A stretch of DNA of 64,000 nucleotides from Candidatus Eiseniibacteriota bacterium (lineage in GTDB: Bacteria > Eisenbacteria > RBG-16-71-46 > JABDJR01): assembly GCA_963783375.1 (NCBI GenBank), contig CAWANH010000028.1, positions 1 to 64,000 on the forward strand, given 5' to 3'. Of the stretch, positions 51,562 to 63,444 are shown one piece after another. Each line of letters begins with the position of its first letter. Positions within the stretch are counted from its first letter, which is position 1. The notes under the pieces were generated by a model that saw only the letters and a program-made list of their open reading frames with translations, did no database searches and was not told the DNA's origin. The position numbers and the translations under genes were made by a program.

Positions 51562-54500
51562 TCAGCGCATGAGCACCGCCTTGGCGGTCCGCACCGCCCC
51601 CGCCGCCTGGACGCGGACGAAGTAGATGCCGTTCCCCAGCACCGCCCCGCGATCGTCGCGTCCGTCCCAGGTGATCATATGGGAGCCGGCGCTGAGCGAC
51701 TCACCCCGGATGAACGCGCGCACCCGGCGGCCCGCCATGTCGTAGATCGCGACCTCGACCGGACCCTCGGCAGGGAGGCTGAAGCGAATCTCCCCGCTCG
51801 CCCCGATCGGGTTGGGCGCCATGGGGAGGAGCCGGAGCGCCGTGCCGCCGGCCGGCCCATCCGTAACCGCGGTGACCTGTAGCAGGCTCACCGCCACCGT
51901 ATCGGCGCCGGCGTTGGTGTCGATCGCCACCGAGCAGCTGTCCGGGCCGAGCATGTTCCCGGTCACGCAGACCTGGAAGGAGGTGCTGTCCCCGGGGAAG
52001 ACCTCGTTGGAGAGGCCGGTGAGATCCAGGGAGAACTGGCCGGCGTCGCACCCGGAGATCGAGTTGATCACCAGGAAGCCGTCGCCGGCATTTCGCACCG
52101 TGACCGCACCGCATTCGGTGCTCCCCGCCGCCACCGTGTTGAAGGTGATAGATGCCGGATCCACCGCGAGCTGGGGCAGAGCGGAGCAGGCGCCGCAACC
52201 CAGGGTGATGGCGTGGATCTCGATGTCGTCGATGTAGGTGCCGGTCGCCCCCACGCTTCCGTCCGAACCCATCTCGTAGGCCACGGCGATGGTCTTCCCG
52301 GCTAGGCCCGGGTACTGGACGCGGATGTGCTCGAAGTTCGGGAGGGTGTTGCCGGACCAGGCCGAGAGATTCTGGAGCGGATTGGCCAGGGTACCGCTGG
52401 ACCGCACGATCTGCGTCCGGTACTGGCCCTCGAAGAGGGTGCTGAAGGCCCCGGCCAGCACGTCGGATCCTCCCACCCGGATCTTCATGAGGGCCCCGTC
52501 GTAGCCCTCACGTCCGTTCCCCACCTCCTCGTTGTCGTAGGTCACGTTGAAGGAGACCTCGACCAGGTCGGCTCCGCCGGGAACCACGTAGGAAGGGGTC
52601 TGCATCCGGCTCCAGTTGGTGTCGGGGCGATCCACGCAGAACGCGGATCGGATGCCCGAGGCGGCCTGGGCGGTGGAGACCGCCCAGGGGTTGGCCACCC
52701 CCTTCCTCTGGGTCCAGGTCCAGGCGGCGGGGAGCCCGGAAGTCGTCCCCTCGAAATCCTCGGAGAGAAGCACGGAGTCCGCGACCACCGTCCCGGTGGG
52801 GACGGAGAAGTCGAAGGCGAAGTCCCCCTGGTCCGTGGTTCCGGCCAGATGGAAGTCGATGGCGGCGCCGCAGGGATAGCCCGGGTCCAGCCGGATCCGG
52901 AACGGGGCGGTGTTGGCTCCCGAGGCCAGGGGCGCCGTCGACGGCCAGCTCTCGGTCCCGTCCAGCACCGCGACCAGGGGGTTCCCCGTGCTCAGGACGG
53001 CGGAGACACCGGTGAGCGTCCCCGCGCACCGGTTCTGAAGGGTCAGGGTCAGCTCACCCAGCTCGTTCGCGGTCAGGAACCCGTCGGGGTTGCACCCGAT
53101 GTCGTTCACCGCCGTTCCGGTGAGGAGGACCGAGGCCTGAGTCGGTTCGGCATCGTTCACCGCCACGTAGGCATCGGGCCAGTCGGTGGTGTAGCTCGCC
53201 CCGTCGGTGCGGGCGTAAGAGGCGTAGAGCCGCCGCGTCCCCGAAACCACCTGGGAGACGCACTGGCTGTAGTCGCCGATGTTGGGGGCCCCGGTGTCCT
53301 GGCCGTACTCGGCGTGGAACGGCGCCGCGGTCAAGGGGGCGGGACAAGCCCAGGTGGCGCCGCCGTCCTCACTATGGGAGTGCATGATCTCGGTGAGATC
53401 GCTCCCCGCGGAACCGGCCCGCTGGTCGTACCAGGTGGCGTCCACTCCGCCGTCGGTGGCGGTCGAGATCCAGGGGAAGAACTGGCAGCGGTCGTTTCCG
53501 GGATCGGTGTTGAGGGCCAAGGGGGAGGTCCAGGTCTGGCCGCTATCCGCCGAGGCCACGGTGTAGACGTCACCGAAGTCCGCGGTCTCCATGCTCGCGT
53601 AGATGACGTGCAGGGAACCGTCGGCCGGGCTCACCGAGAGAGCGGGAAATCCGTTGATGCGATCGCTCCCGAAGGGAGGCAGCGGGGTGTTCACCCCGGT
53701 CACCACGTCCACCGGTGCGCTCCAGGTGGCGCCGTTGTCCGAGGATCGCACGAAGGAGATCGCGTTGGGGGAGCCGAAGCTCCGCCAGACGATGTAGGCC
53801 TTGTCGCTCAGGGGGTCGAAGCGGGGGCAGCTCCCCTGGCCGTCCTGGGGCCGGGTTCCGTAGGCGGTGACCGGGGCCCAGTTGAGTCCGAAGTCGTCGG
53901 TATAGGTCGCGGACATCTTCGAGGTGGAGCCGAAGCTGGTCCAGCTGAGGAGCACCCGCCCGGTCTCCGGGTCCACGTCGATGAACTCCTTGTCGGCGAA
54001 CAGGGACGAGCTGTTGACCGGGGCGGCCGCGCGCGGCCCGGTCCAGGTCACCCCGCCGTCGGTGGAGATGTGGATGCAGAGGCTGTTGAGGCCGCTCGGA
54101 GTGAGATAGATGGAGCTGAAGACGAAGACCTTGCTTCCGTCGTTGGGGTTCACCCACACCTTCACGTCGGGATCGCCGTACACCGCGTCCCCCCCGCCGG
54201 CCACCGGGAGCTGTCCGCCGTAGGTGAAGGTCTGGCCGCCGTCGTGGGACCAGGCGAAACCGGTGACGCTGATGCCGCCGGGGTTCGAGAAACCGAGGGC
54301 GTCGTTGAAGCCCACCACCACGGTGTCGCCGCTGGCCGCGATCGAGGTCTCGCTCTGAAAGCGCGCCACCCCGGGCGTCACGTCCACGTCGGCCCCCCCT
54401 ACGTTCACCGGGGAGAGACCGATCTCCGGGCCGACGAGGACCTGGAGCGGCGTCGGCCGGGTGAGGCTCCGGATCCAGTCCGGCCGGGGGGTCCTCCCCA

Positions 54501-54666
54501 TCAGGAGCGCCCCCATGGCCGAAGGTTCGGGGCGCTCGCGGTTCGACTTGTCCGGAGCCACCGCGGTGGCGGGCAGGCTCAGGATCAGAACCAGGGCGAG
54601 GACGGAAGCGAGCACCGAGAATCGAAATCGAAGCTTCCTATTGAATCGGGGGGGATGCGGGGACAT
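51562..54666 (-). CDS. Secreted BNR/Asp-box (sialidase-like) propeller protein with Ig-like domains and a C-terminal FlgD-Ig tail
   Basis: Signal peptide; repeated SxDGGxTW/F; GDP, DKE, IGDY; tail PNP..IYDMAGRRVR..TWDGRDDRG..GIYFVR. Confidence 0.82.
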   Translation of the reverse strand: MSPHPPRFNRKLRFRFSVLASVLALVLILSLPATAVAPDKSNRERPEPSAMGALLMGRTPRPDWIRSLTRPTPLQVLVGPEIGLSPVNVGGADVDVTPGVARFQSETSIAASGDTVVVGFNDALGFSNPGGISVTGFAWSHDGGQTFTYGGQLPVAGGGDAVYGDPDVKVWVNPNDGSKVFVFSSIYLTPSGLNSLCIHISTDGGVTWTGPRAAAPVNSSSLFADKEFIDVDPETGRVLLSWTSFGSTSKMSATYTDDFGLNWAPVTAYGTRPQDGQGSCPRFDPLSDKAYIVWRSFGSPNAISFVRSSDNGATWSAPVDVVTGVNTPLPPFGSDRINGFPALSVSPADGSLHVIYASMETADFGDVYTVASADSGQTWTSPLALNTDPGNDRCQFFPWISTATDGGVDATWYDQRAGSAGSDLTEIMHSHSEDGGATWACPAPLTAAPFHAEYGQDTGAPNIGDYSQCVSQVVSGTRRLYASYARTDGASYTTDWPDAYVAVNDAEPTQASVLLTGTAVNDIGCNPDGFLTANELGELTLTLQNRCAGTLTGVSAVLSTGNPLVAVLDGTESWPSTAPLASGANTAPFRIRLDPGYPCGAAIDFHLAGTTDQGDFAFDFSVPTGTVVADSVLLSEDFEGTTSGLPAAWTWTQRKGVANPWAVSTAQAASGIRSAFCVDRPDTNWSRMQTPSYVVPGGADLVEVSFNVTYDNEEVGNGREGYDGALMKIRVGGSDVLAGAFSTLFEGQYRTQIVRSSGTLANPLQNLSAWSGNTLPNFEHIRVQYPGLAGKTIAVAYEMGSDGSVGATGTYIDDIEIHAITLGCGACSALPQLAVDPASITFNTVAAGSTECGAVTVRNAGDGFLVINSISGCDAGQFSLDLTGLSNEVFPGDSTSFQVCVTGNMLGPDSCSVAIDTNAGADTVAVSLLQVTAVTDGPAGGTALRLLPMAPNPIGASGEIRFSLPAEGPVEVAIYDMAGRRVRAFIRGESLSAGSHMITWDGRDDRGAVLGNGIYFVRVQAAGAVRTAKAVLMR

Positions 54667-57095: not shown

Positions 57096-59162
57096 ATGGA
57101 GTCCAAGACCCCTCCCAAACTCCCGGTCAACGTCGTCGAACCCGCCCGGCTGAAGCCCGGGGTCTCCCTGGAAGACATCCCCGATGCCCCCGGGGCGGGC
57201 TCGTCCCCCGCCGGCGGCGACCGGATCATCCGGGGCCACGCGCTCATCTTCTGGGACCCCGACCGGCCCGAGTCGAAGCTCGACGCCATCGACACCGATC
57301 AGATCACCCCGGCCCGGGACTGCGTCTCCGAGAGCCTGGATTCCCTGGATGAAAAGTGGAAGGAGGGGGCGTTTCGCTACCTCATGCCCGACTTCCGGGA
57401 GCGGGTCCATCGCGGAGAGACCTTCGTGGTGGCCGGCGACCGGTTCGCGATCGGCTCCTCCCGGGAGATGAGTCCGGCCGGGCTCAAGGCGGTGGCCGAG
57501 GAGGTCGGTCTCTCCCTGGTGATCGTGTGCGGGAACAACATGGGGGACATCTTCCGCCGAAACGCGTTCAACCTGGGGCTCCAGGTAGTCCAGTCCCCGG
57601 AGGCGGTGGCCGACGCCCGGGACGGCGACACGTTCTCCTTCGACCCCGATACCCGGGTTCTCACCAACGAGACCCGGGAGCGGCAGTACCAGCCGCTCCC
57701 CCTCTCCCCCAAGGAAGACGAGATCCGCCGGACGGGGGGAATCTACGCGGTGGGCCGCCGGGAGTTCCGGGAGTCGGTGCGCAGGACCCCCCGGGTGGAA
57801 TGGCCGGATCCGGCGACCGCGGACCGCCTCACCGCCACCGAGCAGATCGTCTGGGCCCATCGGGTGGACAAGGAGGCCGAGGTGAAGCCGGGAGCCACGG
57901 TCAGGGTCTACGCCGACCTCCTCCCCGCCTCGGACGGGACCGCCCCGTTCGCCATCCACACCTTCAACACCATCACCGGGGGCGACACGATCTACCCCCG
58001 ACGGATCGCGGTGGCCAACGACCACTTCGTCTTTACCGGCCGCGAAGCCGACGACCACCAGACCGCGATCGGCCGGGAGTTCGCCCTCCGGCAGGAGATC
58101 GGAAGACCCTTCTACGCCACCCCCGGTGATGGGATCTTCCACTTCTACTTCCCCGAGCAGGGCCTGGTGGCGCCGGGCCAGTTCATCCCGGGGGCCGACT
58201 CCCACAGCCGGGCCTATGGGGCCTACGGGGCGGTGGGGATCGGGGTCGGCTCGACCACCCTGGGCTTCGGCTGGTCGACGGGCTATATCTACTTCACCCC
58301 CGCCCGCGCGCGCCGGGTCACCTTCGTGGGCAGGCTTCATCCCTGGGTGAGCGGCAAGGACATCGTGCTCACTCTCCTTCAGCGGTGGGGAGCCCGCCAG
58401 TCGGAAGGCATGTCGGTGGAGTTCGTGGACCGGGATCGCCAGCTTCCCGTGGCCTACCGGAACACCATCTGCAACATGATGGCCGAGGGCGAGGCCCAGA
58501 ACGGCATCTTCCCCGCCGACGAGACCACCCTCGAGTGGTACCGGAAGAAGGGGATGACCGATCTCCCCTACCCGCCGGTCGTTCCGGGGAAGAACGCGGT
58601 GTACGCGCTGGACGAGACCTTCGACCTGGCCGACGTCACGCCCATGATCGCCAAGCCCTTCAGCCCGGCCAACGCCTACCCGGCCGAGGAGGTCGCCCGG
58701 GAACGGATCACCTTCGACAAGGCCTACATCGGCTCCTGCACCAATGGGAGCTACGACGATCTCCTTCAGGCCGCCCTGGTGGTGCGCGCGGCCCGGGCGG
58801 GCGGCCACCGGAGGGTGGAGCGGGACCTCGTCATCTTCCCCGGGTCGGGAGGAGTCAAGCGGGCCATCGAAAACCCCGACCCGAGGCTCGACGGCGAGTC
58901 CATCGCCGACGTCTTCCGCTCGGTGGGGGGCCTCATCCGCGACTCCTGGTGCGGACCTTGCTTCGGCCAGGGTCCCGACGCCCTGAAACCCGGGGAGCGG
59001 GCCATCACCTCTTTCAACCGCAACTGGCAAAATCGGATGGGTTTGGGAGGAGAGGGCTACCTGGCCAGCCCGTCGGTGGTGGCCGCCTCGGCCCTGACCG
59101 GCTACATGGCGCCCCCCTCCGAACTGGATCTTCACTGGGACCCGCACGCCTTCGAGCCCTGA
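57096..59162 (+). CDS. Aconitase-family dehydratase, fused LeuD-like swivel plus LeuC-like domain (isopropylmalate isomerase/homoaconitase-like)
   Basis: IDTDQITP, FAIGSSRE, IFRRNAFNLG; then NDH, GIFH, GADSHS, IGSCTNG, CGPC, SFNRN..RMG, YLASP. Confidence 0.85.
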   Translation: MESKTPPKLPVNVVEPARLKPGVSLEDIPDAPGAGSSPAGGDRIIRGHALIFWDPDRPESKLDAIDTDQITPARDCVSESLDSLDEKWKEGAFRYLMPDFRERVHRGETFVVAGDRFAIGSSREMSPAGLKAVAEEVGLSLVIVCGNNMGDIFRRNAFNLGLQVVQSPEAVADARDGDTFSFDPDTRVLTNETRERQYQPLPLSPKEDEIRRTGGIYAVGRREFRESVRRTPRVEWPDPATADRLTATEQIVWAHRVDKEAEVKPGATVRVYADLLPASDGTAPFAIHTFNTITGGDTIYPRRIAVANDHFVFTGREADDHQTAIGREFALRQEIGRPFYATPGDGIFHFYFPEQGLVAPGQFIPGADSHSRAYGAYGAVGIGVGSTTLGFGWSTGYIYFTPARARRVTFVGRLHPWVSGKDIVLTLLQRWGARQSEGMSVEFVDRDRQLPVAYRNTICNMMAEGEAQNGIFPADETTLEWYRKKGMTDLPYPPVVPGKNAVYALDETFDLADVTPMIAKPFSPANAYPAEEVARERITFDKAYIGSCTNGSYDDLLQAALVVRAARAGGHRRVERDLVIFPGSGGVKRAIENPDPRLDGESIADVFRSVGGLIRDSWCGPCFGQGPDALKPGERAITSFNRNWQNRMGLGGEGYLASPSVVAASALTGYMAPPSELDLHWDPHAFEP

Positions 59163-62000: not shown

Positions 62001-62116
62001 CGGGGGTTCATGGGGTTGCGGGTTTTCGGGGGGAGAATGTGCTAGACTGCCCTTGCCTTTTGACCCGGTCTTCAACGGTCGGCCGCGGGTCGGCCTCCAA
62101 TCCAGAGGAAAACCCG

Positions 62117-63328
62117 ATGACACGTATGAGAATGCTCCTGCCGCTCTTCGGGCTGGCCGTCGTGGCCGCCGCGATTCCCGCCGCGTCGAGCGCGGCGACC
62201 TCGAAGTACGCGAATTTCGACGAGGCCCTCGCCGCGGGGGGCGACCTGCAGAAACCCGTCCTGATCGACTTCTTCACCGAGTGGTGAGGCTCCTGTAAAG
62301 CGTTCGCCCGGGCGGCGGACTCCGACAGCAACATCCAGGATGCCTTGAGCGGGTTCGTGTTCCATCCCGTCGACGCCGAGAAGGGTGAGGGCGTGGAACT
62401 GGCCGAGAAGTACGGAATCATCGGCTACCCCACCTACGTCGTGGTCAACGCCGATGGAACCACCCTCGACCGGTGGGTCGGCTACGAGAAGAAGGCGTGG
62501 ATCGCCTCCGCGGACCAGGCCGTCGCCGATCCGACCACCATCGACGAGAAGATCGCGCGGTACCAGGCCCACCCCACCGCGGCCGACGCGGTCCGGCTCG
62601 CCGGCTACCACGACTCCAAGGGGGAGTATCCGGACGCGGTGAAGCTCTACCGCGCCGCCGCCCACCTCGATCCCTCCTCCGTCGACGCCTACCGGATGTC
62701 GATCTTCAAGTCGACGTTCTACGGGGTGCGGGAGGAGAATTTCTCCGTGGACGACCTCCGGGCCGCGGGGGACGCGGTGTTCGCGGAGAAGGAGCCCAAG
62801 CCGGGGGACCTCCTCGACGTGGCGATGCTCATGGGTCTCGCCGCTTCGGGCTCCGATGGGAAGCTCGACCCCATTCCCTACGTGAAGCGGGCGATCGAGG
62901 AGACGGATGGATCCACCGATCCCGGGGTGGTGAGAGCACGGACCCAACTTCTTCCCGACTACGCCCTCCACGTCCTGAAGGACTCAGAGAAGGCCGTGGC
63001 CTACGAGAAGGCGTCCATGCCGGAGAAGTGGACGGAGGATCCGGGCCTGCTCAACGGCTTCGCCTGGTGGTGCTTCGAGAACATGGTGAATCTCGAGGAG
63101 GCGGAGAACCTGGCCCGGAAGGCGGTCGACCTGGCCGCTCCGGGCCGGGAGAAGGCGATGATCCTCGACACCCTGGCGGAGATCTGCAACGCCCGGGGCG
63201 ACTGCGATCAGGCGCTCTCGCTCAGCCGGCAGGCGTCCCAGGAAGACCCCAAGAGCAAGCACTATCCGGCCCAGATCGAACGCTTCCAGAAACTGTCCGA
63301 GCAGAAAGCGAACGGAGAGGGACGCTGA
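62117..63328 (+). CDS. Exported thioredoxin-fold plus TPR protein with in-frame TGA (62285-62287), probable selenocysteine (UxxC)
   Basis: Signal peptide, KPVLIDFFTEW-TGA-GSCK, then VDAEKGEG..YGIIGYPT in the same frame; TPR tail LNGFAW..ILDTLAE; 403 aa with readthrough. Confidence 0.82.
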
Positions 63329-63444
63329 TCGGGGTCTGATCCGCCCGGCCGCAGGCTTCAGCGTTTCGCGACGAGTTGAACGGTCCGCTCAGGCGGGCCG
63401 TTCCTCTGTTTACGGGACGCGCCGGGATGGGGGAATATGTTGCG

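Follow-up and report, generated by a model that had tools for sequence, protein, structure and literature searches.

A predicted exported thioredoxin-TPR selenoprotein family from Candidatus Eiseniibacteriota

The in-frame UGA at codon 57 of a gene located in a contig of a Candidatus Eiseniibacteriota bacterium (assembly GCA_963783375.1, contig CAWANH010000028.1) is very likely read as selenocysteine (Sec), which would give a thioredoxin-TPR protein with a U-G-S-C active site. The stretch of DNA analysed, hereafter the window, comprises 64,000 nucleotides. An earlier sequence-only reading had proposed a hidden selenoprotein at this place, and the proposal is supported by the Sec machinery of the same genome, by the pattern of TGA and Cys codons among homologues, and by a hairpin whose conservation is tied to the TGA. 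The gene appears to be a single intact unit, and we lean towards its Sec-containing product being a periplasmic disulfide reductase/isomerase fed by DsbD, with a TPR part that would bind client proteins. The gene is laid out as follows:

62117-63328, + strand: whole gene, 403 aa with Sec at codon 57; homologues cover residues 1-403
62104-62109, + strand: Shine-Dalgarno-like AGAGGA in the sequence, 7 nt 5' of ATG 62117
62285-62287, + strand: in-frame TGA, predicted Sec57 and first residue of UxxC, from the codon counts in homologues
62294-62296, + strand: putative resolving Cys60, Cys in 85 of 85 TGA loci
62302-62320, + strand: candidate SECIS hairpin, with a 7-bp stem and a 5-nt loop CGGGC (62309-62313) that has G at loop position 2
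63378-63403, + strand: terminator-like hairpin 3' of the gene, weak (1 found against 1.0 expected from shuffles)

ATG 62117, TGA 62285 and the end of the downstream ORF at 63328 stand in one frame, as had been seen before, and this frame holds exactly two TGA triplets, codon 57 and the terminal stop at 63326-63328. The ribosome-binding site AGAGGA claimed ahead of the ATG is present, and no match to a sigma-70 promoter was found. Codon 57 is set in the context IDFFTEW-U-GSCK, with the motif W-U-G-S-C, and part of the aligned homologues have TGC/TGT at this position, in agreement with the proposal that the TGA takes the place of the first Cys of a WCxxC motif.

Homologous loci were collected from two sources. 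The search of the phylum returned matches at E ≤1e-35 in 25 of 206 genomes, in 42 places, of which 40 were analysed (one was excluded because codon 57 was uncovered, and one, in G002, by a repeated-codon-context filter); these 40 divide into 20 loci with TGA and 20 with TGC/TGT at codon 57. The metagenome scan was seeded on the C-terminal motif, being thus blind to codon 57, and confirmed 167 relatives. The best 80 of them, minus two with codon 57 uncovered and four duplicates, gave 74 distinct loci, distributed as 65 TGA, 7 TGC/TGT, 1 AGC and 1 apparently frameshifted, a TGA:Cys ratio that is biased because relatives were ranked by likeness to the Sec-form query. Over all 114 distinct homologous loci, codon 57 is TGA in 85, TGC/TGT in 27 and something else in 2. 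The family also has members from Zixibacteria. The comparison of homologues that had been recommended therefore finds TGA kept and alternating with Cys codons, and an in-frame UGA where homologues have Cys is what is expected of a bacterial selenoprotein. The two residues between Sec and Cys60 are variable in the Sec forms (GA, GS, PS and SG occur), with UGSC itself in 11 of the 85 TGA loci.

A TGC or TGT at 62285-62287 in independent data would have spoken for a sequencing error. The independent RNA contig X12 spans 62118-62313 with one other letter, and no A>C or A>T is among its listed changes, so that X12 carries no Cys codon at 57. The contigs that lie over the site, which are contigs and not reads, are X12 (RNA), X15 (RNA) and X4 (DNA), but not X2; bases were compared for X12. 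A TGA that acts as a genuine stop, or that came about by pseudogene decay or by a sequencing error, with the downstream TPR protein made alone, would agree with the behaviour of gene callers, which find internal starts that yield products of 320-330 aa. This explanation is refuted by the conservation pattern in 85 loci, where the TGA persists down to ~31% identity, each time with Cys60, an open frame and the hairpin; the signal peptide upstream is also conserved, and a stop at this point would cut through the thioredoxin fold. We therefore attach next to no probability to it.

The machinery for Sec insertion was sought in the window's genome (G000, 97% complete), a check that had been proposed for selA, selB, selD and tRNA-Sec, and all four were found. 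The hits to selA (E 2e-165), selB (E 1.3e-97) and selD (E 8e-117, with one in-frame TGA of its own) lie over the TIGRFAM cut-offs, and tRNA-Sec (anticodon TCA) exceeds its cut-off of 47 with 68.5 bits; the genome thus holds the complete set (SelA, SelB, SelD and tRNA-Sec) that is taken as a mark of bacterial selenoprotein synthesis. Among relatives, SelB is present in 40 of 41, as well as in 10 of 10 further genomes, and covers all 20 genomes with a TGA copy, although this is permissive evidence and no correlation, because Cys-only carriers have selB too. Some bacteria recode UGA, and the location of codon 57 directly after a Trp could suggest that a changed genetic code or non-specific read-through puts Trp or Cys there. 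However, the six Trp of the gene are each encoded by TGG and its terminal stop is TGA, the position aligns with Cys and never with Trp in homologues, and the genome has a separate normal tRNA-Trp(CCA), its only TCA-anticodon tRNA being tRNA-Sec. Such recoding is accordingly considered extremely improbable.

Other TGA-containing genes were noted in the same genome. The selD gene (L010, G000:C1:187933-188862, minus strand) reads G-U-A-C-K around its TGA, and no hairpin like that of the thioredoxin-TPR gene follows this TGA. A DsbA-like exported protein (L197, G000:C29:22723-23298, minus strand) has an in-frame TGA in D-Y-V-U-P-W-C, which matches the DxxUP selenoprotein motif catalogued in the available text of PMC13188914. 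A motif scan of the genome for W-U-x-x-C and C-x-x-U, which does not amount to a full selenoproteome, returned the thioredoxin-TPR gene and two doubtful matches.

In bacteria, Sec insertion uses a UGA together with an adjacent SECIS hairpin, and UxxC is a typical selenoprotein motif. The hairpin gttcgcc-cgggc-ggcggac at 62302-62320, which had been read from the letters as starting 14 nt past the TGA, was confirmed as the minimum-energy structure; its loop lies 21 nt past the TGA and the local fold has -13.8 kcal/mol. It shows every feature of the consensus bacterial SECIS described in PMC13188914 (section 5 and Fig. 2A), namely a loop of 3-9 nt, a stem of 4-16 bp, a G at loop position 1 or 2, a distance of 16-37 nt from the UGA and an MFE of ≤-7.5 kcal/mol. 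The stability of the hairpin alone proves nothing, because no window folds better than its shuffles (z from -0.78 to +0.44 in 4 of 4 windows), and its significance comes from conservation that is tied to the TGA. Of the 96,458 TGA triplets in the genome, 6 are followed by a stem and loop in the same register, that of this gene included, by a pattern that was defined after seeing the family.

Across the family, a fully paired stem with a loop G is found in 20 of 20 TGA genome loci and in 0 of all 27 Cys loci, and, among the 40 genome loci, the six inner pairs are formed in all 20 TGA loci and in a single one of the 20 Cys loci. In the out-of-sample metagenome set, 58 of the 65 TGA loci combine 6/6 pairs with a G at loop position 1 or 2, and all 65 have at least 5/6, while none of the 7 Cys loci reaches 6/6 and a single one reaches 5/6 with a loop G. 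These raw counts overstate independence, because there are only 4 phylogenetically independent contrasts between Sec and Cys, located on the starred branches of a quick unrooted tree made without residues 57-70; all 4 of 4 go in the expected direction, a number too small to reach significance (p 0.125). On this tree, 8 switches of the Sec/Cys label are required, and the starred branches force at least 4 of them.

The alignment provides further information on the element. RNAalifold, unaided, returned the same 7 stem pairs, and the cells of the stem are paired at 98.6%, where column-shuffled alignments give 90.7% and slid controls 36-62%. Two of the 7 pairs have changed on both sides (G-C to C-G and G-C to A-U), and two pair-counting measures do not beat shuffles (397 and 199 of 500). 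Synonymous constraint, scanned to codon 140 in the 85 TGA loci, is restricted to codons 64-67, where Arg65 is CGT in 67 of 78 TGA loci (2.54 bits) and Ala67 is GCG in 55 of 57 (1.34 bits); no such constraint is seen at these codons in the 27 Cys loci. In the protein the hairpin is read as an F-A-R-A/E-A/V imprint. Taken across the family, the 62302-62320 hairpin behaves as a SECIS and fits the textbook bacterial form. A second, distant SECIS element for the family was also considered and rejected, since between +36 and +200/+250 the 85 TGA loci show neither synonymous constraint nor a consensus structure beyond the proximal hairpin.

One Cys locus illustrates how the element may decay. L099:1576 (G065), which has TGT at codon 57 and groups with five Sec loci on a starred branch, retains the full stem with a loop CTCGC that is without the early G, and is likely a Sec-to-Cys reversion that carries a relic SECIS. 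Sec and Cys paralogues occur together in 8 of 24 genomes. Some paralogues are in tandem: at L078 in G014 a Cys copy lies directly 5' of a Sec copy, and at L084, L086 and L115 in three genomes of one genus (G028, G034 and G046) a Sec copy lies beside a divergent CxxS/T copy. The metagenome copy L185:666 has an intact hairpin and a frame that is scrambled just upstream, probably by an assembly frameshift.

The protein encoded by the gene is composed of the following parts:

62117-62197, + strand: predicted signal peptide, residues 1 to ~26-27, with a basic N-region, a hydrophobic core and an Ala-rich cleavage region
62204-62506, + strand: thioredoxin-fold domain, residues ~30-130, DsbD-gamma/DsbH-like; PF00085, PF13899 and PF13098 above cut-off
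62423-62434, + strand: GYPT loop with Pro105, Pro in 140 of the 141 representatives that have a residue there
62534-63310, + strand: TPR-like alpha-helical solenoid, residues ~140-398, with 14 predicted helices; PF13428 above cut-off, and from the model
63053-63079, + strand: NxFAWWCFE, the most conserved motif of the family, residues 313-321, in the C-terminal helices

Export via the N-terminal signal peptide is predicted with high confidence. By a crude hydropathy test, 98 of the 103 homologues whose upstream DNA is long enough have a hydrophobic N-terminal stretch, which was seen in 22 of 456 control windows; divided by form, the leader is found in 71 of 75 Sec loci and 27 of 28 other loci, with 11 loci too short, and 12 loci with a leader have a lipobox-like Cys by the same crude test. 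With Cys written at position 57, the Pfam models Thioredoxin, Thioredoxin_7, Thioredoxin_2 and TPR_14 score above their cut-offs. The GYPT motif that had been noted after the active site is located at residues 103-106 and is the cis-proline loop; the thioredoxin fold, of the PF00085/PF13098 types, comes with both UxxC and this loop. In the C-terminal motif, Trp318 is kept in 146 and Cys319 in 142 of 148 representatives. A further pair, Cys357 and Cys363 (63185-63205), is present in about half of the family; 51 of the 52 representatives with Cys363 also have Cys357, and this co-occurrence suggests a structural disulfide.

The AlphaFold2 model of the mature chain, built with 150 sequences, has a pLDDT of 97.5 and a pTM of 0.92, and shows the thioredoxin domain followed by 14 helices. 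The top Foldseek match is YbbN/CnoX (3qou, E 2.3e-5), and no whole-fold match was found among solved structures, the best TM being 0.46 to a designed TPR. TPR chains are also matched by VIA-align with Z up to 13.9, values of 12-14 being in the range that unrelated helical repeats attain. The nearest solved thioredoxin domains are those of 2kuc, a Bacteroides putative disulfide isomerase (profile E 6.6e-23; Z 11.7, rmsd 2.3, 111 aligned), DsbD-gamma (profile E ~2e-17), 2lst and DsbH (2ju5; Z 11.6, rmsd 2.3, 109 aligned). However, 2kuc, DsbD-gamma and DsbH match only the first ~110 mature residues, use Cys and are without a matching TPR part.

CnoX/YbbN shares with the present protein an N-terminal thioredoxin domain fused to a C-terminal TPR domain. 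It differs in being cytoplasmic, without a signal peptide, and in working with GroEL/DnaK, according to the available text of PMC8129009; the E. coli protein is also SxxC, whereas the site here is UxxC and the solenoid is longer and differently arranged, and the match to 3QOU over the whole protein is poor (TM 0.24/0.31, rmsd 22 Å). These data bear on the idea that the protein acts above all as a holdase chaperone and is the counterpart of CnoX in the envelope, in which the TPR domain would bind unfolded exported proteins and the Sec site would shield client cysteines under oxidative stress. The shared domain order and the Foldseek ranking point in this direction, as do the strongest conservation being in the C-terminal helices, the persistence of paralogues with CxxS/T or SxxC/AxxC sites, and the precedent of CnoX, which unites both functions (PMC8129009, available text). 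Yet the identity to YbbN over that poor whole-protein match is 18%, and CnoX passes its clients to cytoplasmic GroEL/DnaK, which are out of reach for an exported protein, so that a mainly holdase role seems improbable.

The preferred reading, a periplasmic disulfide reductase/isomerase, depends on the direction of the redox reaction. CGPC is a mark of reducing thioredoxins, and it is found in 37 of 68 full-length representatives, coming from the Cys forms. The window's genome contains a three-domain DsbD beside a TlpA-type gene, and no VKOR was found in it; a DsbD/CcdA membrane domain is present in all 25 genomes that carry the family, and DsbB was found in none of these 25, a survey of carriers only that speaks of availability and not of coupling. 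A reducing direction is argued for by CGPC, by the likeness to DsbD-gamma and DsbH, and by this distribution of DsbD, CcdA, DsbB and VKOR. The combination of an exported thioredoxin fold with a genomic DsbD/CcdA is also that of the known DsbD-fed periplasmic reductases of the DsbC, DsbG, DsbH and CcmG type.

A sequence of events can be proposed on this basis. SelB and Sec-tRNA would, with near certainty, bind the hairpin 21 nt downstream and insert Sec57 during translation, and the signal peptide would, in all likelihood, take the chain across the inner membrane. Sec57 would then attack a disulfide or an oxidised cysteine of a client and Cys60 would resolve the intermediate to a selenenylsulfide, by analogy with thioredoxin chemistry. 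DsbD probably moves cytoplasmic electrons over the membrane and re-reduces the Sec57 protein, and the TPR solenoid may hold or select the client proteins.

It could also be that Sec is real and that the protein serves a single envelope pathway as its dedicated electron carrier or oxidant, instead of being a general reductase/isomerase, for example as an oxidase in place of DsbA, or as a donor to a peroxidase, to a methionine-sulfoxide reductase or to cytochrome c maturation. The Cys357/Cys363 pair, maybe a disulfide, occurs in a genome where neither DsbB nor VKOR was found, which implies that some oxidising route may exist, and the TPR domain could give specificity for a single partner. The dominance of CGPC among the Cys forms, a thioredoxin domain that resembles DsbD-gamma and DsbH and not DsbA, and the fact that no partner gene is conserved nearby all weigh against such a carrier or oxidant, which we judge unlikely. 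A more speculative and rather unlikely reading is that the family is a selenium-dependent envelope chaperedoxin, with the TPR part holding immature secreted proteins while the Sec-thioredoxin repairs their disulfides. Such a family would operate in a phylum in which DsbB has not turned up, would be mostly Sec-coded, with one short SECIS kept across ~30%-identical lineages, and would have undergone several reversions to Cys, after one of which the stem was retained and the loop G lost.

The genomic context names no partner or client, because no neighbour is widely shared among 72 loci; the most frequent, an aconitase-family gene, is found in 8 of them, and an amidohydrolase, an ECF-type sigma factor and FlgD-domain secreted proteins are also recurrent. 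In the window, the gene is preceded by an aconitase-family gene and a DUF5916 gene and followed by an amino-acid permease. The position just downstream of a DUF5916 gene, which the sequence-only reading had pointed out, is correct (Pfam E 9.5e-60), but it does not reflect a conserved link: this adjacency occurs only in G000, in L055 (whose protein is 91% identical), and in G001, G004 and G007, and neither the G003 and G006 loci nor the remaining loci inspected have DUF5916. We therefore rejected a functional link to this gene, the adjacency being local synteny in five close relatives, the window's own genome among them. Six Cys-form paralogues from five genomes (L077, L080, L081, L090, L091 and L110) have a gene for an ECF-type sigma factor in their vicinity. 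The aconitase-family protein of the window (57096-59162, + strand) carries a small, Aconitase_C-like domain ahead of the large domain, and its gene is preceded by a small Cys-rich ORF. A secreted-type protein of 1034 aa, encoded at 51562-54666 on the minus strand of the window, combines BNR repeats with an FlgD Ig-like domain at its C-terminus.

No kind of selenoprotein is predicted more often in bacteria than Sec-thioredoxins, and the present family was compared, by description, with the catalogued UxxC types. It shares with them the thioredoxin fold (PF00085 and PF13098), the UxxC motif with its single Sec, and a SECIS of canonical form downstream, and differs in the signal peptide before the domain and the 260-aa TPR solenoid after it. 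Many UxxC thioredoxin-fold selenoprotein families are listed in PMC13188914, a 2026 review, and the words 'TPR', 'tetratricopeptide' and 'Eisenbacteria' are absent from its available text, family table included. The same words are absent from the main text of the BSepDB paper (PMC13326102), whose database may hold members under a generic thioredoxin name, and there is no match in four supplements of deep-Sep (PMC12013277). Full-text literature searches, with most subscription journals outside their scope, returned no paper on an exported thioredoxin-TPR selenoprotein family.

Likewise, neither the protein nor any of 14 homologues scores above the cut-off of an NCBIfam model. The best selenoprotein match is TsoB, with 34.5-51.1 bits against a cut-off of 805, and the other named selenoprotein families (UGSC NF041046, DsbG-like NF041057, SaoT, Trx7/PDZ and others) also remain below theirs. 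The UGSC-containing selenoprotein NF041046 shares the U-G-S-C motif but gives no model match at E 0.01, and this likeness is a motif coincidence, because so few of the TGA loci read UGSC. Classical TrxA (TIGR01068) is small and cytoplasmic, in contrast to the 403 aa with signal peptide found here, and its model gives 44.6 bits against an equivalog cut-off of 96.8. The exported thioredoxin-TPR fusion is thus apparently uncatalogued, while UxxC thioredoxin selenoproteins are themselves well known and no new recoding mechanism is revealed.

That standard annotation would miss the gene was anticipated and is borne out by the databases, where the entry for the window's product is a 323-aa fragment and fragments from relatives are named 'tetratricopeptide (TPR) repeat protein', while a Cys orthologue from a Candidatus Eisenbacteria bacterium is named 'thioredoxin family protein'. 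There are 253 representatives at 50% identity with E ≤1e-30. Among the best 150 of these, 82 are without the full N-terminus, one of which still has WCGPC and some of which may be contig-edge fragments, and 8 start with the F-A-R-type hairpin imprint. The recognition of the codon would thus add a widespread, mostly Sec-using family of little-studied bacteria that is currently stored as a 'TPR protein' without its active site, and points to selenium chemistry in the maintenance of envelope proteins. It also offers a clean natural experiment on the rules of SECIS elements, with coexisting Sec and Cys paralogues, a hairpin imprinted on the protein, and decay after the loss of Sec.

A second group of exported thioredoxin-TPR proteins, shorter (~290 aa) and with the motif W-U-x-W-C-K, was observed in six relatives (L040:1600, L041:1639, L043:1791 on the minus strand, L044:1582, L048:1890 on the minus strand, and L049:1591), five of which share a different hairpin with a GGA loop. 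In the window's genome, the Cys form of this ~290-aa group is the paralogue L023 (G000:C29:506546-507043, minus strand).
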